Source: a virus (lineage: Duplodnaviria > Caudoviricetes). From it: a stretch of 64,000 nucleotides of DNA. The stretch lies in the IMG/VR virus record IMGVR_UViG_3300048691_000224, one strand, 5' to 3'. Every line of letters starts with the position of its first letter. Position 1 is the first letter of the stretch. Under the pieces are notes generated by a model that was given only the letters and a program-made list of their open reading frames with translations, had not been told where the DNA came from and made no database searches. Made by a program: the position numbers and the translations under genes. Positions 16,476 to 62,111 of this stretch are shown in pieces.

Positions 16476-17437
16476 TGTAATCTTTCTGTAGTATAGTTAA
16501 TAAATTCGCTCAGAACTTCTACTGTTTGTTGCTCCGTGAAGTCAGATCGGACGACAAAGACTTTGTACCCTCGATCTTCAGCCATTTGTATTTTAGCTTG
16601 GTCTTTTGAATATTTTTGTGCATATGTCATGCCAGTTATCTCCATCAGCTCATCAGGAAATTCCTCAGCTTGCTGTTTAGTTGGGTGCCACCGAAATCCA
16701 TCATACTCTAAAATTGATTTGGCTTCACGTACACAGAAATCATAAAAATTAACACCACTCTTAGAACTCAAAAACCACTCACATTTGGATTTGTCGGAGG
16801 AACTTCTGTAATACAGCGAGTAATTTAATAGCCATGGATTTTCCAACAACACTCGATCGATTAGTATTTCAGCTTCCTTCGAATGGCCGATAGACTTGAA
16901 AATTTTCTGGAGGTAACGGGCGTATAATTCGTGACCAAGCTCACCATGCTTGTCGATGTAAATTTGGAGCTTTGTTTTATTACCATATCGCTCTTTTTTG
17001 GTTGCGGATGATTTCGCAGCTCTCGTCGTGATGTGGTATTGCCGTTCTGTCTCAGATAGATTGGACCAATACTTATCAATAGCAGCTTTTCGTTTTGCAT
17101 GCATTGCATCTACCGCAACCTCTCCACCACTTGCTCGGACTAGAGCGACAGTGTTCTTCTTAGCGACAGTGTCCTGCCATTTTTTTCTACCTAACTCTTC
17201 ACCCCACCTAGCAATCATATTTTCTTCCGACTGCCTGGATTTATTCACATGATTATTAAATCTAGTTAAACCATCTAGTGGATATCTCCACACAAACCAC
17301 TCCTTGGTTAGTCGTGTATACGGGTGAGTGGCGTAAGTTTGTGCTCGTATAGCCAATCGCCGTTGGGTAGCCTCAAATTTCTCAACCCCTCGATCGTTAC
17401 CATATTTATCGATGTAGTCTTGTACCGTCATTACCAT
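16472..17437 (-). mobile_element. free-standing Vsr-like homing endonuclease, paralogue of 12299..13372
   Basis: FYDF...ILEYDGFRWH...KDQAK...GYKVFVV; shared ENMIARWGEELG / ERMIARHGEQEG repeat motif. Confidence 0.7.
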
Positions 17438-17476
17438 ATCCGTGCTCCTAATTAAAAGAGTATTTATACACGGATA
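17437..17476 (-). promoter_or_regulatory. late promoter TATAAATA (17461-17468) within a hairpin that occludes the endonuclease SD and start
   Basis: 8-bp inverted repeat at 17437-17444 / 17469-17476; AGGAG SD can pair with CTCTT in the loop. Confidence 0.75.
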
Positions 17477-17522
17477 CTAATTATAGGTAGCACGTTAGGG
17501 TCATAATTATTTGCAGTATACT

Positions 17523-17705
17523 TTAATCAGTTGAGTTATCAGTATGGAGGTCAGGATTCAGATCTTCTTCAATTTCTTCGTGGTCGGACCACTCAACGTT
17601 CGGTTGTTTTGTGCCGAATATTCTATCCCAACCTGTTCGATATGAGTCTGATGCTTTCTTGGAAATCAGTGCGTCACCAGTGATGTCATTGCGGGCTGTG
17701 GTCAT
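17523..17705 (-). CDS. small conserved phage protein (60 aa)
   Basis: Start reassigned to MTTARNDITGD...YRTGWDRIFG, with ATGA overlap on the folE stop. Confidence 0.65.
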   Translation of the reverse strand: MTTARNDITGDALISKKASDSYRTGWDRIFGTKQPNVEWSDHEEIEEDLNPDLHTDNSTD

Positions 17706-18394
17706 GATAATTTTTGACGGGCGATGGCCAGAAATTCTGAGCGGACACTCGAGTCGGTTACAAATTTTCCACTCATCGCACACGTTGTTGTATCCGAAGC
17801 TGTATCTTTTGCTCCCCGTGTTGACATACACAAATGTGCCATGGATGCAAACACAGCGACACTGTCGGATTTTGTGACAAACTTGACAGCTTCCAAAATT
17901 TGATGTGTGAGACGTTCCTGTACCTGTGGGCGGGCGGCGAAAAAGTTCGCAATTCGACTCAACTTTGACAACCCAAGCACTTTATCCGCTGGAATGTAAG
18001 CGATCACAATTGAAGGTTGGTTCAAGCCACCCGCAGGAATTATGGACAAAAGGTGATGTTCACACTGAGAAGCCGCAGAAACTGCGACTGCAACAAATTC
18101 ATCTGGTGCTGACATCTTATTGTCTACGGTCGTGCACTTTGGGAAGTTGTTGTAATCAAGCCCCCACATCATATCATCTACCCACATCTTAGCAACCCGC
18201 ATCGGAGTCTCTGTTAAGCTATCATCCGTCAGGTCTAAACCAAGCACTTCTAACATTGCTTTGGTACTCGCTTCAATAGCGGCTAATTTTTCCGCTCTGG
18301 AAGCGTTCACCTTATCTGTAGTCGGTGTCTCGAGACCGAGAGATTTCAAGTGGGTGTGTACTTGACTTCCAAGTAATTTATCTGTGCTTGCCAT
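17702..18394 (-). CDS. folE: GTP cyclohydrolase I
   Basis: ETPMRVAKM, SQCEHHL, LGLSKL.RI..F..RPQVQERLT, HLCM..RG motifs. Confidence 0.95.
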   Translation of the reverse strand: MASTDKLLGSQVHTHLKSLGLETPTTDKVNASRAEKLAAIEASTKAMLEVLGLDLTDDSLTETPMRVAKMWVDDMMWGLDYNNFPKCTTVDNKMSAPDEFVAVAVSAASQCEHHLLSIIPAGGLNQPSIVIAYIPADKVLGLSKLSRIANFFAARPQVQERLTHQILEAVKFVTKSDSVAVFASMAHLCMSTRGAKDTASDTTTCAMSGKFVTDSSVRSEFLAIARQKLS

Positions 18395-18417
18395 GGTTAT
18401 ATCCTATAATAGTTTTG

Positions 18418-18702: not shown

Positions 18703-19249
18703 GTGCTTTCTTTTGTTTTAGTAGGTATCTTAAAATTGTATCGTATTGAAACTTGTTACTAGGATCAAATTTGATATATTTGATATTTTGAGATATAAGA
18801 TGAGTTGTGATCAACTCATCGATCACCTTCGCTTGATCTACATCTTCATTTCTGCCTAGATGACTGTATGGTAGTGAACCACGATCGATGAATAGGTTTA
18901 CATTATTGTAGCTCTTGTACACTTTGTTCACAAGAGCGCTATACTCATCGAATGGGCAATATTTGTCGTATGGGCGTTGGGACGCATACACAACTGGCAA
19001 GTTGATTGGAGAATCACATACTGCAATCTCACACTTACCTACAACTGATCGCAATAGTCGATGTTGTTGAGCAAAGCAATAATCAGGCTGATCAAATACA
19101 TCTGTGTGTCCCCACCAAGCAGCGTCCTTGACAAATTCGTACACATACTCAGTCGTTAATCCAGCTAATTTCAAATCATACGTCAGGCGTAGTGCTGTAG
19201 TTGATTTGCCAGCGCCAGGGCCAGCATACAGGTTAACGACTATTGTCAT
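18674..19249 (-). CDS. P-loop kinase / NadR-like AAA protein
   Basis: Walker A AGPGAGKST; CDSP Walker-B-like motif. Confidence 0.8.
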   Translation of the reverse strand: MTIVVNLYAGPGAGKSTTALRLTYDLKLAGLTTEYVYEFVKDAAWWGHTDVFDQPDYCFAQQHRLLRSVVGKCEIAVCDSPINLPVVYASQRPYDKYCPFDEYSALVNKVYKSYNNVNLFIDRGSLPYSHLGRNEDVDQAKVIDELITTHLISQNIKYIKFDPSNKFQYDTILRYLLKQKKAHENSINSTN

Positions 19250-19452: not shown

Positions 19453-20117
19453 TTGATTTGTCCTAATAGTGTATACCGTTGATATGCAGCACAGTATAGT
19501 ATGTTACATGAAATGATGTCAACATGCTTGTGTGCTTGTTCAACCAAATCAAATATTGAATTGCAACAATTGACGTGCCCTTCACAGTCGAATAGATTAT
19601 TGCTCTGCAGCAATATAGTCTGCCCTCGTTGAAGCATACTCAACCACATCGGAAGATCAGGTATGTGTTCGCAACTTGTGTTTATTACTACACCGTAATC
19701 ACCGTACAACTGGAAGTCGTACATATCAACAGTAACAGCAGTAAAACGATTTGGATCACGGATGTACGCGTCTGCGATCGGTGCTACAGTTGGGTCTATA
19801 TCCAATGAAGTAATGTGTAAGTTTTGTTTCTTACTCAACAACAATTTGCTTAGTGTACCATACCACCCACCAACCACCAGAGCTGTGTCGTGGTCGAGAC
19901 CTGTGTTGTATAGCATATCGCAAGCTAATATCTTACTCGCAAGTTGTCCCTCTGATAGTGCGTCTCTGACGGCATCAGCTTGCACTCGCATTGGTTGGTG
20001 GTATAGTTCGCTAACAAGGTCACTGGTTAGGGCAGCAGGAATGTGGTTATCGCTCAATATATCCCAAGAGTAAGAAGTTGTGAGGTGTAGTACTAGATCA
20101 GTGTGTGATGTATTCAT
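19449..20117 (-). CDS. class I SAM-dependent methyltransferase-like protein
   Basis: VVGGWYG (motif I), SLDID (motif II), VINTSCEH. Confidence 0.75.
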   Translation of the reverse strand: MNTSHTDLVLHLTTSYSWDILSDNHIPAALTSDLVSELYHQPMRVQADAVRDALSEGQLASKILACDMLYNTGLDHDTALVVGGWYGTLSKLLLSKKQNLHITSLDIDPTVAPIADAYIRDPNRFTAVTVDMYDFQLYGDYGVVINTSCEHIPDLPMWLSMLQRGQTILLQSNNLFDCEGHVNCCNSIFDLVEQAHKHVDIISCNILYCAAYQRYTLLGQIK

Positions 20118-20829
20118 TGGGTGATTGTGATGTCCATTGGTCTCTCAACCATGTGAAATTATTAATGAGTGTTGGATCTATATTCTGATCATACCACGTT
20201 TGTGCAGCACAAACCCCAGCGTTATATTCCAATTGATATTCAGTATTCGGATCATCCGTACGCCAGAGGCTAAGCCTCGCTATCACATCAGCATATTCTG
20301 TGTTGGTCGATAACTCAGCTAGTGATAGGGTAGTTTCGTAGTGGTGTTGAGCGGTTGCTAGTTTAAACACCTCCCGAGCTGTTGCTCTGAATGTGTGGAA
20401 TGGAGTTTGGTCAAAATGAGTTATACTTGCGGGTGGAGTGTTCATGCATTTTATGCCGAGTCCTCGCGTCGAGCAGAAATCAATCCATGTGGGTGGTTTG
20501 TCTACGGTCATCAACTGAGTGTTGAATAATTTTATACCACCGTAACCATACGTGCTACCGTTCACAATATTTTTTGTTGGCCATATGTGGGTATATCCCT
20601 GATCCCAAGGTTGGACCTCAGTGTCAAACTTAAACGTACTCAATGGTTCATTATCACCATCAATTACATAAAACATCTCAGTGCTAGCAAGCTTGGCGGC
20701 TTCGTAATGTGCCGCTGCTATACCAACCACACCGTGGACGCGTTTTACATATGGGAAGTCTTCCTGGAGTTTTGCATATGTTGAATCAGCGGTTGGTTCA
20801 TCATAACTAATTAGTACAATATCAAACAT
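20098..20829 (-). CDS. GT-A-fold glycosyltransferase-like protein
   Basis: Start MFDIVLISYDE; DxD motif YVIDGDN; NGSTYGYGGIKLF. Confidence 0.6.
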   Translation of the reverse strand: MFDIVLISYDEPTADSTYAKLQEDFPYVKRVHGVVGIAAAHYEAAKLASTEMFYVIDGDNEPLSTFKFDTEVQPWDQGYTHIWPTKNIVNGSTYGYGGIKLFNTQLMTVDKPPTWIDFCSTRGLGIKCMNTPPASITHFDQTPFHTFRATAREVFKLATAQHHYETTLSLAELSTNTEYADVIARLSLWRTDDPNTEYQLEYNAGVCAAQTWYDQNIDPTLINNFTWLRDQWTSQSPNEYITH

Positions 20830-20940
20830 ATAAGCGAGTTCTATAGGCTTATAGCCTACATTCAAAACAAGGAAAAGTTGCAACAGGTGTTAATCACCGT
20901 ACAACTTTTCCTTGTTGGGGGGAAGCTTTAGTTCAATAGG

Positions 20941-24069: not shown

Positions 24070-24927
24070 TTAATTCACAACCAAATTAGTGAGATATTTA
24101 TGCAGATCAGGCAGTCCGCCAATGGAGGTGCCATCAGGGCACACTATTTGCGGGAAGCTTCGAGCGCTTGGAAACTTCTCACTAAAGTCATCACGCGTGA
24201 AGTCAACATCCAACATCTTGGTTATAAATTGTTTATCCTTGTTTGTCAGTAGCGCTTTAGCTTGATCGCACTGTGGACAGCCGGGTTTGGAATATACAGT
24301 AAATTCTGGAATTCCAACATATCGATCTGCTGAACCAAACATTGGAGCATCATCACCGCTGTATTGGCCCCAGACGTCATCCCAATCACCCTCTGTAGCA
24401 CCTTTGGAATACTCAAATACTTTTTGTTCGAAAAAGTTTCCGTGAGTTACGCTATCAATCATCTGCTCTACCCATGGTAGCGGATTCTTTTTAATTTTGA
24501 ATATCCCCTTTAATCCAAGGGCGATCAATCGGCGATCTGCAATGTACCTAATATACAACTTCACATCAGCTGCCGTAAGGTCTTTCATTTCACCCATCTC
24601 AAACGCGAGATCGATAAACTTATCCTCCAAATCAACCATGCGCTCTGCAATTGTATAGAGTTGACTCTTCAGGCTATCTTTCCAGATGTGTCGATTTTCC
24701 TCAATAAACACACGGAACAACTTAATCATAGCGTCTGTATGACAATTACCAGAAATGGATAGTGTGTTAGCATGTCTAATTTGAAACGCTGTACCAGGGA
24801 CGCTGAGACAAAACACTTCTGTTGACTGAAGTTCTTTGGTCACTTGTACTGCTGATTTGGGGATCGGTGGTAAGCTACCAGCAATCGCCTGAAGCATATT
24901 GATAATATCCGTATTTGTTTTATTCAT
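24070..24927 (-). CDS. nrdB: split-intein C fragment fused to the C-terminal part of ribonucleotide reductase beta, with a C-terminal glutaredoxin domain
   Basis: VFCLSVPGTAFQIRH...ISGN then +1 Cys (CHTDAMIKLF); YIRYIADRRL, NPLPW, NFFE; then YSKPGCPQC and SFPQI. Confidence 0.9.
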   Translation of the reverse strand: MNKTNTDIINMLQAIAGSLPPIPKSAVQVTKELQSTEVFCLSVPGTAFQIRHANTLSISGNCHTDAMIKLFRVFIEENRHIWKDSLKSQLYTIAERMVDLEDKFIDLAFEMGEMKDLTAADVKLYIRYIADRRLIALGLKGIFKIKKNPLPWVEQMIDSVTHGNFFEQKVFEYSKGATEGDWDDVWGQYSGDDAPMFGSADRYVGIPEFTVYSKPGCPQCDQAKALLTNKDKQFITKMLDVDFTRDDFSEKFPSARSFPQIVCPDGTSIGGLPDLHKYLTNLVVN

Positions 24928-25879
24928 TTGTTGTATTCTGAGCACTAGTTAATGTTTTTGCGCGAGCCGCTGCTGCAGCGGCTAGCAGTTTGTCAATGTG
25001 TTTTATGGTTCTACCTAATTTCCACCCAGTTGGTATCTCAGCTAGCCTACCAATAGTTTTAGATTCAGTGCCGTTGGTTATCCACTGCTTATCGCGCTTC
25101 TTTTGGGTCATCCCAGCCCAGAATCCAATTGGAGGATCTATATTAGGCTGAAGCTTCAGATTGGTTGTGCCATCTGTATAGCAAATTACACCCCTAATAT
25201 TTGGGTGATTTGATACTTGCATCCTTTGGGCAGCAGTACGGATTTGGGGTGGGGGTGGATGTTTACCAAATCTCCACCCAACTGGTAGTTGGGCTGTTTT
25301 TAGCATTTGTGTCGACGTTGTACCATCAGTAATCCACCTAAACTTCCCTACTCGAGTTGCTGAGGCCTTGCGCCTAATCTCTATTGCTTCTTCAGTATAC
25401 ACTCGTCCTGTGTTGTTGGGAATACTATGTGGGTGGTCTTGCAACCGCTTGATGTTGCGCCTAGTCACACATTCTAGTTCATCCGCCGAATAGTAACTAC
25501 CACCATTTAATAATCGCCGGGCAGCAGATGTTTTTGCACGCGTAGCGGTAGCTTTTGACCTTGCGGTTTGACGCACATAATCAGGTACACCCGCTAGTGT
25601 GTCTCCACCTTGGCCACCTATTGCTATGTTGTAGGTATCATCCCTTGATACAAAATTAACGTCAACTAGTTGACGTTCTACAGCTCGAGCTTCGTCCCAA
25701 GTGTCACACTCATGCAATGTGATTCTCACAAAGTTATCTCTACCATATTTTTCGACGGCCCTAGCTAACAATATACCCGAACCCAAATACCCATCAAATT
25801 GATCGGCAAACTGCTTGTGGATCCCCACATATATGCGATCATTGATTACGTTAGTTGTCTGGTACACGATATAATTCAT
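24920..25879 (-). mobile_element. GIY-YIG (Seg-like) homing endonuclease inside the fractured nrdB gene
   Basis: YIVYQTTNVINDRIYVGIH...YLGSG; NUMOD-like WITDG / GW..GR repeats. Confidence 0.88.
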
Positions 25880-25893
25880 TCAGATTCAAGATG

Positions 25894-25933
25894 TTACGTG
25901 GTACCATATTTATGTCTTCGTTGTACCACGTAA
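25894..25933 (-). promoter_or_regulatory. late promoter CATAAATA (25907-25914) in the loop of an 11-bp hairpin upstream of the GIY-YIG gene
   Basis: TTACGTGGTAC (25894-25904) / GTACCACGTAA (25923-25933) perfect inverted repeat. Confidence 0.7.
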
Positions 25934-25941
25934 TATTCTCT

Positions 25942-26991
25942 TCAGCTCATGTACTCTAGTAGAAATTCCTTCGCCCACGATGAGTCCATTATTGGGAGCA
26001 GTGGCAATACCCACTCCAAAGACAATACACCTTCTTTGGTGAGTCTACACAATTCCTTATGCTTGTCTGTCAATACTTTCAAGGAGCCACTCTTAGTGCC
26101 CGAGCACACGTAACTAAACTCCTCAGTTACAGATTCAATATCCTTCGCCTGAACGTCCTGTATCCGACCATCACCCATCTCTAAAATCATTCTATGATTT
26201 GGTGATACTGATTGTGAGAAACCTTCACCCTTAAAATGGTACACTGTCGGTACTGTTTTCTTGGTAAGATTGGTTGGAGTCACAAAATTAGTCTGACTGG
26301 TTTCGGTATCATACTCTAACAGTTCAGTAGATAGTGTGACACATTCGATAGGTAACCACCCATCTAGTGTCATAACTTCTGTGCCGGCAACCAAACACTT
26401 CTCATCAAGGATCGACCAAGAGATGTTTGAGCCCATTCCAACCATCGTTCCGTGACGGGGGAAGTTCAATAACATGATGAATGATGAAAATAATTGCATA
26501 CCTTCAGTGAATGCTGAGAATACTGCTAGCTGTTGAGCAATGGACTCGGTGTCAGTTCCGATAAAATTCTCAACATATTCGTATTTTTCACGCATCGCAT
26601 CATATTCTAAGAACTGATTGTAGATTGTGTCAGGCATTCCTAGCGTTTCCACTAGGTTAGAGTATGCTGCAATATGAGTAGCTTCACGAGCCGCAAAACT
26701 TAACAACATCATCCGAACTTCTGGTTGGGGAAATACCGGTAGATAATTCATCACATATGCATTTGCTACACTGATGTCACCTTGAGTGAAAAATCTGAAG
26801 ATGTGGGTCAAGAAGTTTTGTTCAGACTGTGTTAATTTGGTGTTCCAATCTTTAACATCCTCCAGGAGAGGGGCCTCCCAGTGACCCCAATGCATGCGTT
26901 CGTGATCCATCCACGTTTCGTAGCACCACTGGTAGTTGAATGGCTTGTACGATGGACGTGGGTCTGTTAATTTTAATTTCTTTTTGGACAT
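25942..26991 (-). CDS. nrdB: ribonucleotide reductase beta N-terminal part fused to split-intein N fragment (151 aa)
   Basis: FFTQGD, REATH, FTEGMQLFSSF, WSILDEK; then CLVAGTEVMTLDGW...VSPNHRM intein blocks from 26397. Confidence 0.92.
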   Translation of the reverse strand: MSKKKLKLTDPRPSYKPFNYQWCYETWMDHERMHWGHWEAPLLEDVKDWNTKLTQSEQNFLTHIFRFFTQGDISVANAYVMNYLPVFPQPEVRMMLLSFAAREATHIAAYSNLVETLGMPDTIYNQFLEYDAMREKYEYVENFIGTDTESIAQQLAVFSAFTEGMQLFSSFIMLLNFPRHGTMVGMGSNISWSILDEKCLVAGTEVMTLDGWLPIECVTLSTELLEYDTETSQTNFVTPTNLTKKTVPTVYHFKGEGFSQSVSPNHRMILEMGDGRIQDVQAKDIESVTEEFSYVCSGTKSGSLKVLTDKHKELCRLTKEGVLSLEWVLPLLPIMDSSWAKEFLLEYMS

Positions 26992-26997: not shown

Positions 26998-28824
26998 TTA
27001 TTGGCAGGCGATACACTCTGTAGAATCAACAGCTTCTGTGGTAGGAGACTGTTCGTCGATTTTAACTCGTTTGATTGTTTTGGAGATTTTTTCAGTAGAT
27101 TTAAGTTTCTCACTTCTAAGGTAATATAGCGTCTTCAATTCTTGTTTCCAAGCATTGAAGTGAATGTCGTGCAATACCTTAGTAGTCACGTTAGGTTTGG
27201 TGAACACATTAACACTCTGCGCTTGGTCGATGTGGGGTTGACGATCAGCAGCGAGATCAATGATATGTTGTTGGTCAATTTCCATTGCTGTCTTGAACAC
27301 GTCTTTTGTATGTGCGTCAAATAAATCAGAGTGTTGGATTGACCCATCGTGTGCATTGATGTCCGACCAAATATCATCACGGTCCAACTTTTTATCTGCA
27401 GCACACAGAGCAATAATCAATTTATCAAGGTATGGGTTGCGATGGAAGTTGAATCCAGAGAGTGTGTCCTGACGATAGCAGTTGGCTCTGAACGGTTCGG
27501 CGCTTGGTGAAGTGTTTCCTAGAATCAAACTAGACGACGCATTTGGCGCAAGTGCGCATCTGTGAGAGAATCTAAGTGGTTTGGTCATGTCCCCACCACC
27601 TTCGATATAGTCGAGGTTTGCTCCACGCTCTACCCCAAGTCTCTCTGAGGATTCGAGTGATTGATCGTCTAGCTGTTTGAATATTTGGATATTCATTGCT
27701 CGCGATTCGGGTGATCCAAACGCAACATTATTTTTTTGGAAATATGCGTGCAGACCAAGCAAACCCAAACCAACTGATCTCTCTCGTTGAGCTGAGAAGC
27801 GAGCTCGAGCAATCGAATCTGGCGCATTATCTATAAAATATTGCAGCACATTATCCAACATTTCCATAACATCAGATATAAACAAGTTGTCGTTCTTCCA
27901 CTCATCGTAGTACTCCGCATTTACAGATGATAGTACGCAGATTGCAGTTCGATTTTCATCGACAGGTAGTGTTATCTCAGAGCACAGATTCGACTGTCGG
28001 ATTTTCAATCCTAATTTTTTTTGCCAGTGAGGGAGCTTCTTATTTGCGGTGTCGATGAACAGAAAATATGGTTCGCCGGTTTCTTTGCGGAGTTTGAGCA
28101 GTTGAGACCAGAGAGCTTTGGCAGATACCACCTTAGTAACTTCTTTGCTGAATGGATCAATCAGTGGCCAATCATCATTAGCATTACTGTCCTTCATACA
28201 TCGTTCGATGATGTGCATGAAAGCATCTGGGATATTGACTGCGTGATTCAAATTTGTGCAACGTGTATTAGCATCGCCAGTAGGTTTTCTCATTTCTAAG
28301 AATGGGATAATCTCGGGGTGTGAGATATCCAAATACATGGCGAAACTACCTCTGCGCGTAGATCCTTGTTTGTAGGCCATACTCGCGCTGTCATACGTCT
28401 TCATATGGGCAAGTACGCCAGTAGATTTATCGTCGCTAGTACGAAGGCCAACACCTACGCCAACGCCTCCCCCAAGCATACTCAGAATACAGGTTTCTTT
28501 ATAGGTATCAACCAACCCATCAGATGAATCAGGCAAAAAACTAAGGTAGCAGCTAACAGAAAGACCTTTCTTGTTGCGGCCATGTGATAAGATTGGCGTT
28601 GAATAACTCAACCAGTGTTTACTAGCGTAATTGTATAACCGCTGAGCGTGTTCAGGATTGCTAGAAAACTGCTTGGATACTTTAGCGAACCGCTCTTGTG
28701 GACTGACCTCGTCGGAGGTCATATATGATTCTCTGAGCCTCTGTAGACCGAGTTGATCAAACAATGAATCGCGTGAGTAGTCTACGGTAATGCCTGCTAT
28801 TGCAGGTGGGAGAGTGGTTGTCAA
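26998..28824 (-). CDS. nrdA: class I ribonucleotide reductase alpha subunit (no ATP cone)
   Basis: SCYL, GGGVG, QSNLCSEI, LAPNASSS, DQAQSVN, KTLYYLRS, C-terminal CIAC. Confidence 0.95.
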   Translation of the reverse strand: MTTTLPPAIAGITVDYSRDSLFDQLGLQRLRESYMTSDEVSPQERFAKVSKQFSSNPEHAQRLYNYASKHWLSYSTPILSHGRNKKGLSVSCYLSFLPDSSDGLVDTYKETCILSMLGGGVGVGVGLRTSDDKSTGVLAHMKTYDSASMAYKQGSTRRGSFAMYLDISHPEIIPFLEMRKPTGDANTRCTNLNHAVNIPDAFMHIIERCMKDSNANDDWPLIDPFSKEVTKVVSAKALWSQLLKLRKETGEPYFLFIDTANKKLPHWQKKLGLKIRQSNLCSEITLPVDENRTAICVLSSVNAEYYDEWKNDNLFISDVMEMLDNVLQYFIDNAPDSIARARFSAQRERSVGLGLLGLHAYFQKNNVAFGSPESRAMNIQIFKQLDDQSLESSERLGVERGANLDYIEGGGDMTKPLRFSHRCALAPNASSSLILGNTSPSAEPFRANCYRQDTLSGFNFHRNPYLDKLIIALCAADKKLDRDDIWSDINAHDGSIQHSDLFDAHTKDVFKTAMEIDQQHIIDLAADRQPHIDQAQSVNVFTKPNVTTKVLHDIHFNAWKQELKTLYYLRSEKLKSTEKISKTIKRVKIDEQSPTTEAVDSTECIACQ

Positions 28825-29397: not shown

Positions 29398-29426
29398 ATA
29401 AAAAGCCGCTTCAAGCGGCTTTTTAT
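29398..29426. terminator. bidirectional intrinsic terminator
   Basis: ATAAAAAGCCGCT-TCA-AGCGGCTTTTTAT between convergent genes. Confidence 0.9.
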
Positions 29427-37115: not shown

Positions 37116-37225
37116 AGATTGATAGAGCTCAGATGATACATTGTTGTGTATTTACTAAATTTAGTTGACCCCAGTCTTGTCCCTGCTGTATATAATAACC
37201 TGTACACCAAGGAATTATATACATT

Positions 37226-37873
37226 ATGGCAACTAAGAAACTCAAGCAACCAAAACAACCCACACCACCATTAGAAGGCATCGATGACGACACAAGTATA
37301 CTGGCTATTGAGCTACTTGAAGAGGAAATGCTTTCCAGTGATTTGATCACGACTGGGTCAGTTGTTGGTGACACCGTTGCTATGCCGGCAGAAAAGGTTA
37401 AGCGTCCACAAGCATATGTTAACAACAAAGCACTACTAGAAGAATTTGACATCAGCATTAAACAAGATCAGATGACACCAAAGTTAGCAAAGATGGTAAT
37501 GATGATATGTCAACGTTATGCGAGAAAGGTTAACTTTAGTAGCTACACATATAATGAAGATATGCAGGGGTTTGCTATGATGAATCTCGTAAAATCGTGG
37601 CGCAGTTTTAATCCTGAGAAATCTCAGAACCCTTTTGCTTATTTTACAACTTGTGTAACCAATTCTTTCTTGCAATATTTAAACCACGAACGCAAGCATA
37701 GAAACATTCGTGACGCACTGTTGGTTGACAACGGTTTGGATCCATCATATACTTTCACTGAAGCATATAATACCTCAGAGTCTCAATCTGAAGTTGTTTC
37801 CCAACAACCCGAACCGCCAACACTCAACGATGTCGTCGTCAAAAAACCCAAAAAAACAAAAACAATTAAATAA
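37226..37873 (+). CDS. late-transcription sigma factor (T4 gp55-like)
   Basis: YVNNKAL...NFSSYTYNEDM...FNPEKSQNPFAYFT. Confidence 0.9.
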   Translation: MATKKLKQPKQPTPPLEGIDDDTSILAIELLEEEMLSSDLITTGSVVGDTVAMPAEKVKRPQAYVNNKALLEEFDISIKQDQMTPKLAKMVMMICQRYARKVNFSSYTYNEDMQGFAMMNLVKSWRSFNPEKSQNPFAYFTTCVTNSFLQYLNHERKHRNIRDALLVDNGLDPSYTFTEAYNTSESQSEVVSQQPEPPTLNDVVVKKPKKTKTIK

Positions 37874-41187: not shown

Positions 41188-41282
41188 AACTCACCGTGGG
41201 TATTGTAGTGTGATATTTAGTTAAGTAGTTCAGCGGGCGACCCTAGAGTTACTTAACTGTTCTGACCAATATATTATGCATG

Positions 41283-42293: not shown

Positions 42294-42466
42294 AAGATAG
42301 ATGAGGACTTCGTTAGCACTACATCCTCATCTATCTTGCGTTTTAAGTTACATTGAACTTTGGTTTTACTTCACTACGTTACACAACCCCAAAGTTCAAT
42401 GTAACTTAAAGTTTTTATCCCTCGGGGATATGAGTGATTTGTTTGGATAAATAACAAATCACTCAT
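42294..42466. repeat. three consecutive perfect inverted repeats (14, 22 and 14 bp)
   Basis: Arms at 42294-42307/42324-42337, 42342-42363/42389-42410 and 42430-42443/42453-42466. Confidence 0.95.
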
Positions 42467-42513
42467 GCCGCGCACATGTCAAATAAGTACGGCGGAACTT
42501 ACATATTACCTAA

Positions 42514-45500
42514 ATGCCAGCTGCTCCAAATACTAACTTTGCCGAACAATGGCAGTCAACATACGATGTTTTAAAGAAGTCAATTTCTTATAAACAGTTT
42601 GATTATGATGAAATCAAACAAGTTCTCATAAGCTATCTCCGAACATATCACCCAGAGTATTTCAACAACCTTATTGAAACGGATGAAATGCTACCCTTAA
42701 TAGAGTTATTCGCATATGTAGGGGAACTGTTTGCATATAGGGTAGACGTAAACACACAAGAACACATACTGGGTAATGTTACCCGCAAGTCCTCAGCCCT
42801 GCAACTAGCAGCGATGATGGGGTACACACCCTCTCGTCGGACCCCAGCAACTGGTCTGGTTAAAATAGATACCCTAACTACAACTGAATCAATTATCGAC
42901 CAACAGGGTGTGGATTTAAAAAATAAAGCTGTTAAGTGGAACGATCAAACCAATTCAAATTGGCAGCTTCAGTTTGAATTAATCCTCAACAAAATTGTCA
43001 ATAATAAGACCGGAATCATAAACGACTCAGACAAGCTGAATCTTGATGGTACGATAGTCGAGAAGTTCTCACTTAATGTTGCACCAACGGCGAATGGTGT
43101 GTACAGGTACACAGTCAACCTCGATAAACTAAATTTGCCGATGGAGCTCGTTCCGGTAAAATTAACTGAGAGTGCTATTGCTGAGTACCCAGCATCGGGG
43201 GATAGATCACTCGACATTCTTAGGCTCAATGATGGATTTGGAGTAGGGTCAAGAAACACTGGATACTTCTTCCTAACCAAGCAAGGACACTTATCACCAA
43301 CCCCCTTGTTCTTTGATGGCGCAACGGTAAACCACACAGATGCGCTCCGGATCAATGGCATCAATGATACAGACGTCTGGCTTGCGGAATTGACCTCGAG
43401 TGGTGATTTCGTTCGCCATTGGACTCAAGTTGACAATATTGCATACAATAGCCCAACAAACGACCGCAATGTATTTCAGGTTGAGACTCTTGAGGGTGAT
43501 GGGATTCAATTGGTATTTGGAGATGGTAACTACTCTAATGTACCCACTGGCCATTTTACTCTCTGGACTCGTGCTAGTGAGGCTCTCACACAATCAATCC
43601 CCGTGTCGGTGATACAGAAGCGAGTGATGATTCTTGAGTACCAAGACTTGTATGGTAACAAACAACGTTGTACAGTACAATTCTCTCTAACGACTCCAAT
43701 TGAGAATCAATCCGAGTCTGAATCGATTAGAAAACTTCAGCGGGCAGTTCCTGGTGTGTACTACACTCAGGACAGGATGGTTAATGCTCAAGATCACGAG
43801 GGGTACCTACTCCAAGATCCATCCATCGTAAAAATTAAGGCGGTCAATCGAAGCTTCACAGGTCAGTCGAAATATTCAGGCTGGAACGACGGTAGTGAAG
43901 TGTATGAAAATGTAAAAATATTCAGCAATGATGGTGCATTCTACTTCAAGCCAACCATCAAGCTAAAAGAAGTTCTCAATCCTAATAACTCAATCCCAAC
44001 AATTGTGTTCGCCCTCACACACGTGGAGCCATTACTAGCTGCACCTGACCTCTGGTTGGGTATTGTGCAGAGAAATGCGGCGAATGTACAAGTTAGGACG
44101 TACCTTACAATACCAGAGCGCTCTCAACTGGTCAACGCTCTAGATTTGCTAACTAGCGGTGGCACAGTCGGCTTCAAGTGGGACATTACGACAAACACTT
44201 GGATAATCGGACTGAACCTGACTGTAACTCCTGATATTACAATCAATGTGATGACATCGACACGGGGTTGGGTAATAACCTCATATACCGCCGCGACTAT
44301 ATTCTCCAGCGCAACAACTAAATTTTGGAACTACTCGCTAGGATCTCAATTAGATTACGATACCTTATTGCCAACAGCTGACCGAATTACAATTCTGAAA
44401 GCTAACGTCAACAAAACAAAAAATGGTGTGCTTACAGATGATGTTGTGTTTAAGGTCGCTGGCAATGTAGTCACATATTCTTCGCTGCCGAATCAAACTA
44501 CTGTAGATTTATCAAAAGTAGAACTAATCGGTTCAGATTCGAATGGAGATGGGTTCCCAGAAGACCTTGCAGCTGAGTCACTACTAAACTCGATATACAC
44601 CTTCGCGGTACCACAAAATAGTGCCATCGATTTAACACTACCCGACAAGTACCTACGGGGATTTGGTGACGTCAGTGCAGTGTACGGAAACTCGGATCCG
44701 GTAACGTGGGAAGAAGATCCGACTGGTATGTCAGGCCAACTAGTCAACATAATTAAAATTGCTGATACGAGATCTAACACTCAGATCACGGTGGTTGTAC
44801 GCGACTTTGTGTACTTGTCTCGGCCCAATACCAACTCGGATTTCATCATCCAAGAGGACACAGATTCTGTCAGATTAAACTACGCTTACGACTTCGCTCA
44901 TAACCTATACATTCGTTACCCTGGACGAAAAGATTTGAACTTTTTGTGGGAGCACTACACAGACTCATTCAACTTGGTAGATCCGGTACACACCAACGTC
45001 AACGATTTGTACATAATCACCAAACAGTACTACGTTGATACTCTGAACTGGCTCCAATCAGACGCCCCTCAACCAGAAGTGCCTAGTTACTTCCAACTCA
45101 AGACGTCGTATTCTGCCTACCTACAGAATGCAATGATGTCTGATGAGGTGATACTTCGCCCCGGTAAATTCAAAGTATTGTACGGTAAAAATGCTCCACC
45201 ACAAAGTCGTGCAAAAATTCAACTCGTTGTCAACAACCTATCAACATCTTCGGATATGGTCAAGACTGATGTGATATCGCTCATTCGTCAATACTTCGAC
45301 ATCTCCAATATCGCATTTGGTGATCAATTGTTTTTCTCGAGCCTGGCAGCATATGTTCAGACCAACACCAAATACGACATCCGGTCGATGTTGTTAGTGC
45401 CACTGTATCCAGAATTTCAATTTGGAGATTTGTATCAAGTGCAAAGCGCTGCTGATGAAATCTTAATTGCAGATGTGTCGGCAGTGGATATTCAAATAGT

Positions 45501-45534
45501 TGATACATTAACAGCTACAAACCTCAGACAGTAA
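42514..45534 (+). CDS. baseplate wedge subunit (gp6-like)
   Basis: YDEIKQ.LISYL, QLAAMMGY.P.R, LVFGDG, QDRMV..QD motifs. Confidence 0.85.
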   Translation: MPAAPNTNFAEQWQSTYDVLKKSISYKQFDYDEIKQVLISYLRTYHPEYFNNLIETDEMLPLIELFAYVGELFAYRVDVNTQEHILGNVTRKSSALQLAAMMGYTPSRRTPATGLVKIDTLTTTESIIDQQGVDLKNKAVKWNDQTNSNWQLQFELILNKIVNNKTGIINDSDKLNLDGTIVEKFSLNVAPTANGVYRYTVNLDKLNLPMELVPVKLTESAIAEYPASGDRSLDILRLNDGFGVGSRNTGYFFLTKQGHLSPTPLFFDGATVNHTDALRINGINDTDVWLAELTSSGDFVRHWTQVDNIAYNSPTNDRNVFQVETLEGDGIQLVFGDGNYSNVPTGHFTLWTRASEALTQSIPVSVIQKRVMILEYQDLYGNKQRCTVQFSLTTPIENQSESESIRKLQRAVPGVYYTQDRMVNAQDHEGYLLQDPSIVKIKAVNRSFTGQSKYSGWNDGSEVYENVKIFSNDGAFYFKPTIKLKEVLNPNNSIPTIVFALTHVEPLLAAPDLWLGIVQRNAANVQVRTYLTIPERSQLVNALDLLTSGGTVGFKWDITTNTWIIGLNLTVTPDITINVMTSTRGWVITSYTAATIFSSATTKFWNYSLGSQLDYDTLLPTADRITILKANVNKTKNGVLTDDVVFKVAGNVVTYSSLPNQTTVDLSKVELIGSDSNGDGFPEDLAAESLLNSIYTFAVPQNSAIDLTLPDKYLRGFGDVSAVYGNSDPVTWEEDPTGMSGQLVNIIKIADTRSNTQITVVVRDFVYLSRPNTNSDFIIQEDTDSVRLNYAYDFAHNLYIRYPGRKDLNFLWEHYTDSFNLVDPVHTNVNDLYIITKQYYVDTLNWLQSDAPQPEVPSYFQLKTSYSAYLQNAMMSDEVILRPGKFKVLYGKNAPPQSRAKIQLVVNNLSTSSDMVKTDVISLIRQYFDISNIAFGDQLFFSSLAAYVQTNTKYDIRSMLLVPLYPEFQFGDLYQVQSAADEILIADVSAVDIQIVDTLTATNLRQ

Positions 45535-45556: not shown

Positions 45557-45593
45557 TATAAATACTACACTCCTTGATCGTGGTGTAGTATTT
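45557..45593 (+). promoter_or_regulatory. late promoter TATAAATA overlapping the left arm of an 11-bp terminator-like hairpin
   Basis: AAATACTACAC (45560-45570) / GTGTAGTATTT (45583-45593) followed by TT. Confidence 0.7.
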
Positions 45594-48600: not shown

Positions 48601-50695
48601 CGGTCTGCTTCCGCCTTATTGGGTGCCCGTATCACCGACTGATCAACAAGTAGACGGGCAGCAGTTATTGACAAATATATCTGCGATAGGATCCACCACT
48701 CCTCCATCAGTACTCCCATATAGAGCAGGTAGCAACTTGGAGTTTATCTGGAGATGGTCTGACGACTTCGTCAGAGCTCAACTACAAACAGCACACGCAG
48801 CAGATCCTTTTGAATTCTACAAATTGGTGGTCATGCAAGCTGACACCATTGTAGTTGGTGGGTTAACAATCAATACCAATACTCGCAATGTCCACTCTCA
48901 ACTAGACTCCCTACTTGGTGACAATCTCCACTCGGACAGATCACTAATGAGTCTTGTTGTACTCTTCAGCAGATACAACAATTTGTTGAGCGTCAACGAT
49001 TCACCCCTACTTGCTTGGAAGTCTTGGACTACCAAGCTTGCTTATCAAACAGGCTCACTAATAGTTCCTCAGACTCTCCGAATATATGAAGAGTGTTCAC
49101 CACTGACAAACTACAAACTTGCACTCAAGCGCACCGAGAATGTAAAAACTATATCATTCTCAAATCTTATCGTGACACTCAATAAGGCAGGATCCCCACT
49201 CACGCTACCTGCAGGTACTGGAGACGATTGGGAATATAAGATCGATACTTCTGAGTCCATTGTGGAAACCCGCCGCCGGTACGGAATGTTGAGACGCTCC
49301 GTGACATGGAAGCCTTCCCTACTCGCATTTCAATGTGTGGGTAGTGCACCTTGGATTACAGGAGAAACAATTACTATAGTAATTGATGGAGTGTCTAGTG
49401 TATTATATGTGCGCAATATGCCGCATATTACAACCTCTTCACACAGCTTTTTCCAACTATGTGACGACATCGACCAAGCACTAATATCCCAAGGGACTAC
49501 AGCAGTGTTTGGAATGAACGAATTCGTTGCAGAAGCTAAATCTATAGAGTCAACATTTCACTCAGCTGTTGATAATGTGAAGCGAGTTTGGGAGTATATT
49601 GTTCCGGATAGAAATGAAATTATCCCATTTGAGTTTCCAGTAGTTGTTACCGGTGTACAGAATCTAATTGACTTCATTCACTCGTATGTGCGGTTCATGG
49701 AGGATGATGGTGTTGTGTTTGCTTATGGCGGAAACCCAACGTACGATCCTGATACTCAAGAATTGGTAGACTGGAACCAGCAAGTTAGACGAATGTTGAG
49801 TACCATATACAATTCATATGGACTGTCAAATCGGAGATATGTACCTGAAGATTCATACAATACTCGACTAGCACTAGATATTCCGTATGTAGAACTCAAT
49901 CCATTCCGTGATCGAATCTGGGTGAATACTCCCGAAGGTGTGATATGTAACATTTACAATACTCCATACACTACCGAACTGCAATCCACAGCGGCAATAT
50001 ATGATGATATTGGCGATCCGATCACCTCTGATGTAGTTCCGCTGCGTACTGACAGAATCACTACATTCTTTTACGAAAATAAGAATCGTGTAGGCAATGC
50101 AGTACCAAATCAAAACAAATTCCAACATATTGGTTCAGGTAAAGTGTCTGTTGATTACTATGAACACGCGCTACTCTTCGATGCTCAGACTGCTGGTGGG
50201 CTCGTTATCTATGATCCATTTCTAAATATCCAGAAACCTACAATGAGGTTGGAATTTCAGCGCAGTTCTAGACACTTCTACCGCCCAACCATGGGTGGAT
50301 TTGTAGTAACCCCTAACACTACTCTACCAAATCTGGAAACAACCGCCCAATACCAACGCCAGGATTGGAATGTTAATAATAGCAATGAGTTGATCCAGTC
50401 TACTACAGACGTTCGCACAGGCATGGGTAAGCTTCCGCTCTCATATTTTCAGAATGTCCCAGTTACATCCAAGACTGAGTTTCAATTTTGGCAAAAGATG
50501 ATCCGCCAAAAGGGTACCAAAGGTGTTGTGGATGTTTTCACTAAGCATACTCTGTATGACCAAAAAGAAGTAGATGAGTTTTGGGCATGGAAGTTAGGTA
50601 CTTTCGGCACCGTCCATCAGAGAGATCAAATAGCTTTCAACATCACTTCAGATGATTTATTGAATGATTTTTGCAACTTCAGGTTCAGTACGTGA
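45656..50695 (+). CDS. large virion / baseplate protein (1679 aa)
   Basis: Follows gp6-like gene; jumbo-phage-type blocks PHREPW...P.WW, MIRQKGT, EFWAWKLG.FG. Confidence 0.75.
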   Translation: MFEEFGSDYTRKNLDLDSLLPGVNQSEVSSSMLSTVFQRWLTKPEVTNVAGTIGFPLTNVSEAILETTTGRQAYQLSPVYSVQYGTEETILNWADILRKAAHTGIDPTRYREWGKVSQMNFAPPIALDKFIHYNDYFWANPDNVTEKPDYVTITRDVAVPNAWSASNKWYTQTQIESPFLYGLSTNPTASWTGIAKQAVLPIIEFDDIELNAWSQVHRTWNHRQTLSDQWTTSITDPTDLQIQDPLFPLLWELVDERVSPCVHQPLLLTPHASQLITQPTTQVYCPAFLFGQDAIIVHHNGKRVFNYIEVETPGSQYSTEIQFLTPVVGSVEIFHGAQTAADVGREDVVTKVLSSAAVFTDFAGIEVSGTIRKNLTKYRYTDQVKSAYSQQPRFNLYDVATSELHSIGTIWEYVGDPDAGVTPQLNKRIWVSNGREDFKFSTDLTTTTNELLAFKHSSNFSTIWRGPHQYVPRYVNQDRVADGELPGVSVPPGSGTWEPSPLLAANPMRETRRVVRYSEIAPHFKSISEHQPPTGGAPTDWSLGGIIKIAHGGEIHWISSMIAKHIAMPNLINFIIDQTYAHTAFVEQQATLLLADLIATAEHNAETIAAVIYSSIKTAAVTSGTNDLVFQDSATYNVTTGVGFPNLVPSLAMYGIVPLTTPTLVADPSLGVISLTSHTGSKRILAVNKARHDSVVSSVVATGSVVTANVPPLPIARNALWLNTSTNQLMSLVVDYIATSAPQGLIPTGKFWLETPTNVLYQMTNLGWAIVPTIRAWHTLDTAVILAQVQLLFETDLHKRTLERNPQPLSLLDINTQHTALEASGLTKAYQTAYKRLVRTRNQTNALTRSYVATKAFTWWYGNTFTPAINAPYPTIPVEWANTTLEIYSNLYGTSYPHREPWRLQGYINEPTWWKVEYSDQSRFRVWTQTMWENIAQGIVPPGYPLPDDVAISSGVAGEVLGCVRTSVNTTDYTTSDGILPDGLLPPYWVPVSPTDQQVDGQQLLTNISAIGSTTPPSVLPYRAGSNLEFIWRWSDDFVRAQLQTAHAADPFEFYKLVVMQADTIVVGGLTINTNTRNVHSQLDSLLGDNLHSDRSLMSLVVLFSRYNNLLSVNDSPLLAWKSWTTKLAYQTGSLIVPQTLRIYEECSPLTNYKLALKRTENVKTISFSNLIVTLNKAGSPLTLPAGTGDDWEYKIDTSESIVETRRRYGMLRRSVTWKPSLLAFQCVGSAPWITGETITIVIDGVSSVLYVRNMPHITTSSHSFFQLCDDIDQALISQGTTAVFGMNEFVAEAKSIESTFHSAVDNVKRVWEYIVPDRNEIIPFEFPVVVTGVQNLIDFIHSYVRFMEDDGVVFAYGGNPTYDPDTQELVDWNQQVRRMLSTIYNSYGLSNRRYVPEDSYNTRLALDIPYVELNPFRDRIWVNTPEGVICNIYNTPYTTELQSTAAIYDDIGDPITSDVVPLRTDRITTFFYENKNRVGNAVPNQNKFQHIGSGKVSVDYYEHALLFDAQTAGGLVIYDPFLNIQKPTMRLEFQRSSRHFYRPTMGGFVVTPNTTLPNLETTAQYQRQDWNVNNSNELIQSTTDVRTGMGKLPLSYFQNVPVTSKTEFQFWQKMIRQKGTKGVVDVFTKHTLYDQKEVDEFWAWKLGTFGTVHQRDQIAFNITSDDLLNDFCNFRFST

Positions 50696-50774
50696 TAGTT
50701 TTGATTAAATACACCTAACATCAGAACTCACTACCGAACTCTGTCACCAGTCTGACTGAGTAAACACCGACACT

Positions 50775-56177: not shown

Positions 56178-56196
56178 CGATAGTAAATCAAATATC

Positions 56197-56239
56197 CGAA
56201 AAACTAGAGGAGTAAATAACACACTCCTCTAGTTTTTCG
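56197..56239 (+). terminator. 17-bp perfect hairpin with late promoter GTAAATA at the stem/loop junction
   Basis: CGAAAAACTAGAGGAGT-AAATAACAC-ACTCCTCTAGTTTTTCG. Confidence 0.85.
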
Positions 56240-56266
56240 TTGTATAACAATACAATCCACATATAC

Positions 56267-57303: not shown

Positions 57304-57387
57304 CCAGCAAAGCGCACCGGTTACTAAATATAGAATGCGCTCGCTACTGCATTACACTGGTTAAACCGAGCTTATTTGATACAAAAC

Positions 57388-60282: not shown

Positions 60283-60345
60283 TTTTTGCGCCCAACAATA
60301 GTAGAGCTAAATAAGTTCTACTATCTCACGCACATCAATCCAAAT

Positions 60346-61869
60346 ATGAATGAAAACGCTAAGTTTTCGGGGTACTTCAAGTTAGTAAACATTGAACCGA
60401 CTCCTACCCAACTCCAGGATAACATTACCTTCGATACAATGTCGATGAGTACTGTCACAGGCTGGTACAACAACATTGTAACCGGATCAGGTAATCGCTT
60501 GAGTCGATATGCTGAGTATGATCTAATGGATTCAGATGTTGATGTGTCAAGAGCACTTGATATCATCGCAGAAGAGATGACCAATGAGAACGATGGCGAA
60601 ACACTCTCAGTAGAGCTGGAGACTGATGTTGTTGATGAAATTGGACAAGTCACTCTGAATACTGCCCTGCGCCGCTGGTGTAAGATGATTGGGTTGGAGG
60701 CTAAACTATTTGACATTGCCAGGCATCTGATCAAGTATGGGGACGTTGTCTTTAACAAAGTTGATACCTTTTCCCCTTGGGAATATGTCCCCATCAAGAA
60801 TGTATCAGGAGCATACGTCGATCAGAATAACGCAAGTCTCATAATTGGGCTCGTGGTAAATCAAAACTTTAAAAGCACAGTACCAAAGACGCTGGGAGTA
60901 AACTCTAATACCCTGGAAATTACTCCTATGAGCAAATTGGTGAGATTCACCCTAAACAATGGAATGAGTGAATCAGCACCTTTTGGGTTGTCGATCCTCA
61001 ATTCAGTATATCGAGCTTATCAACAAAAAAAGCTGATCGAAGACTCCATCATCATATACCGTGTTCAACGAGCTCCGGAGAAACGTGTGTTTTATATCGA
61101 TGTTGGTAAAATGCCACCTCCAAGGCGTAAAGCGTACCTGGAGCAGGTTAAGTTGGAGATGCGTCAAAAGAAGATTCCAACAGTTAATAATTCTAGCGAC
61201 TCGGGAATCGACAATATGTATGATCCTCAAGATATGATGGAAGATTTCTTCCTTGCGACATCAGGAGAGGGTGGAAGAGGAAGTAAGATTGAGGTACTGC
61301 CTGGCGGTGCGAATCTGGGTGAACTCTCTGACTTGAATCACTTCTCTGATAAACTGGCTCAAGGACTAAGAATTCCAGTCAGTTGGACCAGAGATGGTAC
61401 GAATGGCCCTACAGTTACCAATGATGGTAAGGTTGGCGCTGCGTTCATCCAAGAAGCACGGTTCGCTAAGTTTACTGAACGATTGCAAACTGCACTCCAG
61501 ATCACCATCGACGCAGAATTCAAAGCATTTGTTAAGAGTGTTGGAATTAAGATCGACCCCCACTACTTCTCGGTTGTACTACCTAAACCTAGCAACTTTG
61601 ACTCTTATCGTCAAGCTGAGAAGGATGCTGCTCTACTCAACTTGCTAAGCCAGACAAGTACTGTAGCAACCCTGTCCCCACGATTCGCAGCAAGGCGTTA
61701 TCTGCAAATGACACAGAATGAAATAATTGAAAATGAGCGCATGTTGCGTGAAGAGCGTGGAATTGCGTTGGATGATCCACAACTCATTACAAAACTATAC
61801 TCACCTGACTCAGTAGTAGCAGGCGATTCAGAAGCACCGGCGGACAGCATCGAATTAGATGCAGCATAA
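60346..61869 (+). CDS. portal protein (gp20-like)
   Basis: IEDSIIIYRVQRAPEKRVFYIDVGKMP, EDFFL, GSKIEVLPGGANLGELSD motifs. Confidence 0.95.
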   Translation: MNENAKFSGYFKLVNIEPTPTQLQDNITFDTMSMSTVTGWYNNIVTGSGNRLSRYAEYDLMDSDVDVSRALDIIAEEMTNENDGETLSVELETDVVDEIGQVTLNTALRRWCKMIGLEAKLFDIARHLIKYGDVVFNKVDTFSPWEYVPIKNVSGAYVDQNNASLIIGLVVNQNFKSTVPKTLGVNSNTLEITPMSKLVRFTLNNGMSESAPFGLSILNSVYRAYQQKKLIEDSIIIYRVQRAPEKRVFYIDVGKMPPPRRKAYLEQVKLEMRQKKIPTVNNSSDSGIDNMYDPQDMMEDFFLATSGEGGRGSKIEVLPGGANLGELSDLNHFSDKLAQGLRIPVSWTRDGTNGPTVTNDGKVGAAFIQEARFAKFTERLQTALQITIDAEFKAFVKSVGIKIDPHYFSVVLPKPSNFDSYRQAEKDAALLNLLSQTSTVATLSPRFAARRYLQMTQNEIIENERMLREERGIALDDPQLITKLYSPDSVVAGDSEAPADSIELDAA

Positions 61870-61901
61870 CTTTTTACACACCCACTAAGGATACTAATCA
61901 C

Positions 61902-62075
61902 ATGGATACTAATGTAAAACAACAATACTCTGATTTAATAGACACCATTGTTCGTCAAGGGGACCCCTCTGCTGCAATCGCAGCTGTTCTGGCCGCTCGG
62001 CTACCCGACGTTGTTCAAACTGTTGGAGTGACTATCGATCCGACGGCTCCTCGTGTAAACCTCAACCCAGCGTAG
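61902..62075 (+). CDS. small protein at the prohead-core (gp67-like) position, absent from the ORF track
   Basis: 57 aa MDTNVKQQYSDLIDTIVRQGDP... between portal and protease. Confidence 0.55.
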   Translation: MDTNVKQQYSDLIDTIVRQGDPSAAIAAVLAARLPDVVQTVGVTIDPTAPRVNLNPA

Positions 62076-62111
62076 TAAATACCCCATACTACACATAAAG
62101 AGTTCACTAAA

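Follow-up and report, generated by a model that had tools for sequence, protein, structure and literature searches.

The window analyzed here is a stretch of 64,000 nucleotides (nt) from a virus of the Caudoviricetes, IMG/VR record IMGVR_UViG_3300048691_000224, and our subject is the hexamer TAAATA, a predicted late promoter core, where it lies in or against inverted repeats between genes. Six sites in the window are real, strong hairpins that hold TAAATA on the sense strand. We read them, with a probability of roughly 0.6, as the ordinary intergenic punctuation of a T4-like transcription program, packed into the same short spacers. The stem-loops would act as RNA on transcripts that arrive from upstream, attenuating them, ending them, or protecting their 3' ends, and where the 3' arm lies near a start codon, ribosome access would be blocked. 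The two signals overlap in such a way that the promoter sits in the loop or at the edge of the 5' arm and transcription would start about 6 nt farther on, in the 3' arm. Late RNA would be immune to its own hairpin because it lacks the 5' arm and the hairpin cannot fold.

TAAATA boxes and a gp55-like sigma factor

TAAATA occurs 33 times in the window, whereas about 63 copies are expected from base composition. Twenty of the copies are on the coding strand at 15 to 100 nt before a start codon; this zone accounts for 4.5% of strand positions. The distance to the ATG is mostly 24 to 35 nt, and the genes that follow include those for the tail tube, wedge, hub, portal, and protease. The two bases before the core are variable, with the complete TATAAATA present in a few copies only, and the sequence downstream is rich in A and C. 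Phage Xoo-sp13 has the same box at the same distance from its start codons. A late motif is also on record for CBB, which we take to be a Rak2-like phage. Its published sequence is ATAAATA (PMC5259590).

A tblastn search with the annotated late sigma factor of Xoo-sp13 matched the window at 37382 to 37771 with 44% identity over 130 amino acids (E 1e-37). The earlier mention of a gp55-like sigma is therefore correct. The gene adjoins SbcD/SbcC-like genes; two small minus-strand open reading frames (ORFs), 37129-37458 and 37484-37675, overlap it and are probably spurious. Given the position of 20 of the 33 copies and the structural genes downstream, TAAATA is, on sequence grounds, a genuine gp55-type late promoter motif without a -35 box, as the preliminary description had assumed. 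The boxes would be -10-only late promoters, read by the host RNA polymerase together with the phage gp55-like sigma factor. At the promoter-hairpin sites, no -35/-10 pair of the sigma70 early or MotA middle type was found. Sigma70-like early promoters are present elsewhere in the phage, for example, TTGACT-N17-TATAAT at 2514-2585 on the minus strand.

Six of eight inverted repeats are strong hairpins

The preliminary description listed at least eight promoter hairpins. All eight inverted repeats are present, with the positions, stem lengths, and loops that it gave, and in each of them TAAATA has the coding orientation of the gene that follows. When fold energies in tight windows were compared with those of dinucleotide shuffles, six repeats folded far better than the shuffles (z scores of -3.6 to -8.1), and the other two, at 57311 and 62072, were at chance level (Table 1). 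In a simulation of 3,000 random contexts, a perfect stem enclosing TAAATA reached at least 6 base pairs (bp) in 15% of cases, at least 8 bp in 1.1%, and at least 11 bp in none, so that a set of 20 promoters should include about three 6-bp cases. Twelve of the approximately 20 promoter-like TAAATA sites have no hairpin.

Table 1. Promoter hairpins, comparison hairpins, and the sigma factor gene (positions refer to the window unless G003 or G004 is named)
Position	Strand	Feature	Remarks
17437-17476	-	T4-type mask, 8-bp outer helix	-14.2 kcal/mol, z -3.6; 5' of phrog_22677 gene
25894-25933	-	Hairpin, 11 bp, 18-nt loop with ATAAATA	-15.7 kcal/mol, z -4.7
42430-42466	+	Hairpin, 14 bp, loop TGGATAAAT	-21.6 kcal/mol, z -7.5; promoter across loop and 3' arm
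45557-45593 (repeat 45560-45593)	+	Hairpin, 11-12 bp, running into TTTTT	-15.2 kcal/mol, z -5.1
56197-56239	+	Hairpin, 17 bp, loop AAATAACAC, A-run and T-run flanks (terminator-like)	-25.5 kcal/mol, z -8.1
60298-60324	+	Hairpin, 11 bp with one G.U, loop AAATA	-12.7 kcal/mol, z -6.5
57311-57341	+	TAAATA promoter with 6-bp repeat, chance level	z -0.8; 42 of 200 shuffles fold as well
62072-62092	+	TAAATA promoter with marginal 6-bp repeat	-4.9 kcal/mol; z about 0 in 76-nt context; 5' of head protease gene
50692-50731	+	Weak interrupted hairpin (8+4 bp), 14-nt loop beginning with TAAATA	z -3.4; missing from the preliminary description
41214-41258 (hairpin 41219-41258)	-	Hairpin, then TAAATA directly (ordinary order)	5' of RusA-like gene; missing from the preliminary description
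15905-15931	-	Canonical terminator-like hairpin with T-tract, no promoter (contrast class)	Others at 29398-29426 and 42294-42337
37382-37873	+	gp55-like late sigma factor gene (predicted)	ORF 37226-37873; tblastn with annotated Xoo-sp13 late sigma
G003 12914-12958		Divergent hairpin, TAAATA in loop	16-20-bp stem; none in window
G003 15516-15546		Divergent hairpin, TAAATA in loop	Strong; window counterpart 6 bp only
G004 18837-18871		Divergent hairpin, TAAATA in loop	12-bp stem, loop TACTAAATACC; window has the 45560 arrangement
G004 27346-27387		Divergent hairpin, TAAATA in loop	Further case

At 17437, TATAAATA lies between an inner helix of 5 bp, in which the AGGAG is paired, and the 8-bp outer helix, whose 3' arm extends over the spacer and the first base (A) of the ATG. 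At 25894, 14 nt separate the 3' arm from the homing endonuclease ATG (gene 24920-25879, phrog_314), within an insertion that splits nrdB. The hairpin at 42430 is the third of three stem-loops 5' of the baseplate wedge gene (42514-45534); the first two, at 42294-42412, are long (14 bp and about 22 bp) and carry no promoter. At 45557-45593, between the wedge gene and the gene of a 1,679-amino-acid virion protein, TATAAATA overlaps the start of the 5' arm. TAAATA stands at the junction of 5' arm and loop at 56197-56239, upstream of the baseplate hub gene, and the hairpin at 60298-60324 precedes the portal gene (phrog_213). First-start ORF calls for hub and portal (TTG at 56240 and 60286) extend into the hairpins; alignment with relatives indicates ATG 56267 (hub) and ATG 60346 (portal) as the likely starts.

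Only RNA from upstream is predicted to fold

We placed the predicted late start 6 nt after the last A of TAAATA, which is the T4 spacing. The hexamer is in the loop at 25894, 42430, 56197, 60298, and 50692, where its T and last A are often the closing pair; it lies between the arms at 17437 and over the first bases of the 5' arm at 45560. At all six strong sites, the predicted start falls within the 3' arm or right at the end of the 5' arm. Because it is past the 5' arm at every site, the hairpin would form only on RNA arriving from upstream. The preliminary description is borne out on both counts under the T4 spacing: transcription would start beyond the left arm, and it follows from this position that upstream read-through RNA can fold and late RNA cannot. 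Hairpins lying wholly inside a late 5' leader are rare across the clade formed with the relatives described below, with 2 observed and 5.75 expected.

What the hairpins do to the upstream RNA is less clear, and several observations weigh against our interpretation. A T-tract is present only at 45560, where a run of five T's crosses the end of the stem, and at 56197; there is none at 25894, 42430, or 60298. Pairing of both the Shine-Dalgarno sequence and the AUG by the 3' arm is seen only at 17437. From the end of the 3' arm to the ATG there are 14 nt at 25894, 21 at 60298, 27 at 56197, 47 at 42430, and 62 at 45560. The stems are nearly pure Watson-Crick and fold equally on either strand, and for this reason the sequence does not prove RNA-level action over action at the DNA level; strand asymmetry, measured by G.U counts and by sense versus antisense energy, gave no separation of the two. 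Late start sites and RNA ends have been placed by analogy with T4 geometry. Hairpins are also gained and lost between clades, and the one at 50692 decays within 4% divergence.

Since T-tracts occur only at 45560 and 56197, most of the promoter hairpins are not canonical intrinsic terminators, and the proposal that they terminate read-through RNA is not supported in general. A simple terminator scan called no plus-strand promoter hairpin on the sense strand. Canonical T-tract terminators elsewhere in the window (15905, 29398, and 42294) are usually without a promoter. About half of the clade's promoter hairpins end at most 14 nt from the start codon, and these could hinder ribosome loading on leaders poor in Shine-Dalgarno sequences. 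Such sequences are missing from most late-gene leaders, for example, 42490-42513, 50750-50774, and 60325-60345. We infer the RNA-level action and the effect of each hairpin from these arrangements.

Conservation and turnover in relatives

Relatives from IMG/VR were graded by wedge-protein identity: G001, G005, and G006 at 97 to 99%, G002 and G003 at about 74% (about 70% nucleotide identity), and G004 at 50%. The gene order of the late cluster is conserved across the three clades. In the near relatives, which are 97 to 100% identical there, the 143 nt of the four strongest hairpins between late genes are free of substitutions, and the 473 nt of their flanks have 10. About 3 would be expected in the hairpins at the flank rate, which makes the conservation signal marginal. 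The strong hairpins are unchanged, and changes accumulate in the flanks and in the promoter-less neighbor hairpin. The 42430 hairpin is identical in G006 (97% identical), in which neighboring hairpin 2 is degraded by two uncompensated arm changes, and at 45560 all three substitutions in G005 and G006 (97.9% identical) fall outside the hairpin. The weak hairpin at 50692 has two uncompensated pair-breaking changes in G005, which is 96.6% identical.

One hairpin of G003 (14439-14471) is the orthologue of that at 56197 and shows coordinated changes in both arms. Otherwise, at the corresponding junctions the divergent relatives have nonhomologous hairpins whose loops hold TAAATA (Table 1), so the structure recurs without sequence conservation and turns over fast. 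An all-against-all comparison of the arms found nothing shared except the TAAATA core and this one orthologous pair. The 60298 hairpin is missing from the orthologous spacer of G003; the spacer orthologous to that of 57311 does hold an 8+4-bp hairpin, with loop AAAT; and the spacer corresponding to 42294-42412 has three to four different hairpins. The spacers with the arrangements at 45560-45593 of the window and 18837-18871 of G004 (locus L007) are orthologous, and in both the same promoter-proximal CTACAC pairs with GTGTAG; this partner follows the promoter in the window but precedes it in G004.

These data bear on the possibility that the association is a coincidence and some of the repeats are functionless, which we regard as improbable. 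It would account for the chance-level repeats at 57311 and 62072, for the lack of conservation at 50692, and for the null overlap statistics given below, but not for stems of 11 to 17 bp, which appeared in 0 of 3,000 random contexts, or for six strong hairpins (z of -3.6 or lower) that are conserved in near relatives.

Overlap is probably explained for the most part by co-residence in short spacers

Overlap of promoters and hairpins was compared with a null model in which the motif is placed randomly within its own spacer. The spacer set held 122 sequences from the window, G002, G003, and G004, and placement tests were run on the window, the IMG/VR relatives, T4, the Xoo-sp13 genome as a whole, and 32 metagenomic loci surrounding portal homologues (26 to 63% identity). 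TAAATA is the commonest hexamer in the hairpin loops of the spacers, with 7 copies against 0 of its antisense form. Overlap as such was not enriched over random placement in the 122 spacers (10 observed versus 8.3 expected, p = 0.27). Placement in the loop was enriched, with 7 observed versus 1.6 expected in the clade (p = 2e-4) and 4 versus 0.76 in the window alone (p = 0.003). A predicted start inside a hairpin was seen 5 times versus 2.8 expected in the window (p = 0.09), 6 versus 4.2 in the relatives, and 6 versus 4.0 in T4; there was no enrichment in the Xoo-sp13 genome (4 versus 6.4) or in the 32 metagenomic loci (6 versus 7.9). Hence, of the enrichment of TAAATA in hairpins that the preliminary description had put forward for testing, the part concerning sequence shuffles and loop placement stood, and the overlap itself did not exceed random placement. 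Both signals are real, and their superposition is about that of two independent signals in short spacers, except that the promoter avoids stems.

The preliminary description had seen in these sites fused insulator/promoter switches. Under that reading, the overlap itself would be adaptive, and each late cistron would be tied to its own promoter, for instance, for virion stoichiometry. The loop enrichment speaks for such a device, as do the CTACAC junction and the presence of such a module at nearly every compared late junction in at least one of the three clades. The sites at 42430 and 45560 also do so: their spacers are long (294 and 121 nt) and their promoters lie 61 and 92 nt from the ATG, compared with the usual 24 to 35 nt, and crowding does not force the overlap there. 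Compaction as a sole cause is ruled out at these two sites by their long spacers. However, a preference for loops is expected regardless, because a hexamer made only of A and T weakens a stem; the overlap is no commoner than co-residence predicts, in the counts for starts inside hairpins as well; Xoo-sp13 and the 32 metagenomic relatives show no trend; and turnover between clades is high. We therefore consider a selected switch unlikely, though less so than coincidence. The superposition is probably in the main a result of co-residence and not a separately selected device.

Comparison with known systems

Late promoters embedded in hairpins, with late RNA that lacks the 5' arm, have been described for T4 e, soc, 49, I-TevI to I-TevIII, and segB and for mobE of phage Aeh1 (PMC2988022, PMC3014915). 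Our pipeline, applied to T4 (1 to 150 kb), returned exactly soc, I-TevII, 49, and e. By this analogy, a structure that can form only on read-through RNA is not a new principle. TA(TA)AATA is placed, as in the T4 mask, within the loop or 5' arm, and only read-through RNA would fold; 17437 matches fully. In T4, the 3' arm pairs the Shine-Dalgarno sequence and the AUG, whereas the arms at 42430, 45560, 56197, and 60298 end 21 to 62 nt before the start. The T4 genes concerned lie behind early or middle units; here, the leaders mostly lack a Shine-Dalgarno sequence and the upstream genes are themselves late. Judged by gene function, 17437 is between folE- and queD-like genes and 25894 is inside nrdB, while the sites on the plus strand come after late structural genes.

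Among 16 leaders of free-standing endonuclease genes located in fractured (split-intein) genes, Dassa et al. (2009) reported hairpins in 15, and 10 of these had a TATAAATA late promoter (PMC2677866). Two sites of the window are placed similarly: 25894 precedes the endonuclease gene inside the insertion that splits nrdB, and 13398 precedes a gene in a split DNA polymerase. They differ in that the 3' arm at 25894 ends 14 nt before the ATG and does not cover a ribosome binding site and in that the pairing around TAAATA at 13398, a weak G5/C5 repeat, is at chance level (z -1.3). From their sequences, 17437 and 25894 fit the arrangement reported for endonuclease genes in fractured genes, and only 17437 appears to mask the start region. 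Both would represent the arrangement known for selfish endonuclease genes lodged in early operons.

The PeSL and PmSL elements of T4-like phages are stem-loops that share sequence with the -10 box of early or middle promoters and have been shown both to terminate and to promote transcription; PeSLs carry sigma70 early or MotA middle promoters and are repeated, conserved sequences that mediate recombination around ORFans (PMC2839356, PMC4122927). The sites at 42430, 45560, 56197, and 60298 may be the late-promoter counterpart of these promoter/stem-loop cassettes. The likeness is an intergenic stem-loop that overlaps or abuts the -10 box and would attenuate transcription from upstream, with a promoter that starts it anew. 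In contrast, the promoter here is of the late type, the arms have no common sequence, and the late cluster is fully syntenic. A repeated mobile cassette of the PeSL kind is ruled out because the arms share no sequence. Compared with a Rho-independent terminator followed by a promoter, 56197 and 45560 have the stem and T-run and 41219-41258 has the plain order of hairpin and then promoter, but 25894, 42430, and 60298 have no T-tract and the promoter lies inside the structure.

Finally, the repeats might act as DNA, with cruciforms or hairpins at the replication fork presenting the -10 box in single-stranded form to the gp55-like sigma and so allowing clamp-independent late initiation. The virion RNA polymerase of phage N4, a single-subunit phage enzyme, uses hairpin promoters with 5- to 7-bp stems and 3-nt loops, and basal transcription by gp55 in vitro favors supercoiled DNA. 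The almost entirely Watson-Crick stems without strand asymmetry and several short loops would suit such a device, and the promoter element is inside a DNA inverted repeat, as in N4. The stems here, however, are 8 to 17 bp and the loops 5 to 24 nt, the presumed reader is a gp55-like sigma, and most promoters (12 of about 20) have no repeat. The position of the motif varies among the 5' end of the loop, its 3' end, the 5' arm, and a place just past the 3' arm; loops of 4 to 5 nt cannot expose the whole box, and 18-nt loops disfavor extrusion. In wider relatives that have this promoter, no association is seen, and among the products of the phage are SbcCD-like and RusA-like nucleases, which act on structures of this kind. 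No N4-type virion RNA polymerase was found in the PHROG scans of the window, the only searches made for it. As to the sliding clamp and the gp33 activator, whose genes the preliminary description did not see, one window is too small a part of the genome to judge their absence; searches of Xoo-sp13 with T4 gp45, T4 gp33, and PF02916 gave no match, and an empty result of this kind is not evidence of absence. With no positive evidence for it, we consider this suggestion of the preliminary description very improbable, the least likely of the explanations weighed here. Were it true, initiation at DNA hairpins would couple late transcription to supercoiling or to replication-fork single strands and not to the sliding clamp.

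The phage and its inserted genes

The window has a G+C content of 43.5% and belongs to a giant myophage. Its baseplate wedge protein shares about 30 to 35% identity with the proteins of Xanthomonas phages Xoo-sp13 and XacN1, of Ralstonia phage RsoM2USA, and of others such as Serratia phage BF and Klebsiella phage K64-1. Megablast against INPHARED gave no match, and neither did Rfam (gathering threshold) or ARAGORN. A locus search with the hub protein alone returned only a near-identical contig. Gene orientation changes at about 37.2 kb, from the minus strand before this point to the plus strand after it. PHROG scans identified one region of replication and nucleotide metabolism (primase, split DNA polymerase, folE/queD-like genes, nrdA, and split nrdB) and a second of virion genes (tail tube, hub/lysozyme, wedge subunits, large virion proteins, hub, portal, and protease).

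Several genes are interrupted. The DNA polymerase is encoded in two ORFs (13375-15870 and 11338-12291), between which lies a phrog_22677 gene (12299-13372); this gene has a TAAATA of its own at 13398 and a paralogue at 16472-17437. The insertion that splits nrdB spans 24730-26397 (1.67 kb), matched no group I intron model in Rfam at the gathering threshold, and is missing from the 99%-identical G001 (L022 4556-4572). Conversely, G001 has a 1.28-kb insertion in nrdA with an intein-like N-terminal block (L022 6727-8007), which the window lacks at about 28550. A 17-bp hairpin without TAAATA (20866-20916, minus strand, -20 to -27 kcal/mol) lies across the predicted TTG start of the gene at 20098-20883 and has a counterpart in G002 (13178-13498).

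Implications

The TAAATA map gives about 20 predicted late promoters in the window and the corrected gene starts for portal (60346) and hub (56267), and it marks endonuclease genes that may have late control of their own. The placement statistics caution that not every overlap of a promoter and a hairpin is a designed switch. If the hairpins act as we propose, upstream RNA would be stopped, trimmed, or silenced exactly where the next late promoter fires, cistron by cistron, and the logic of T4 e, soc, and I-TevI, together with the PeSL idea, would extend to junctions between one late gene and the next.

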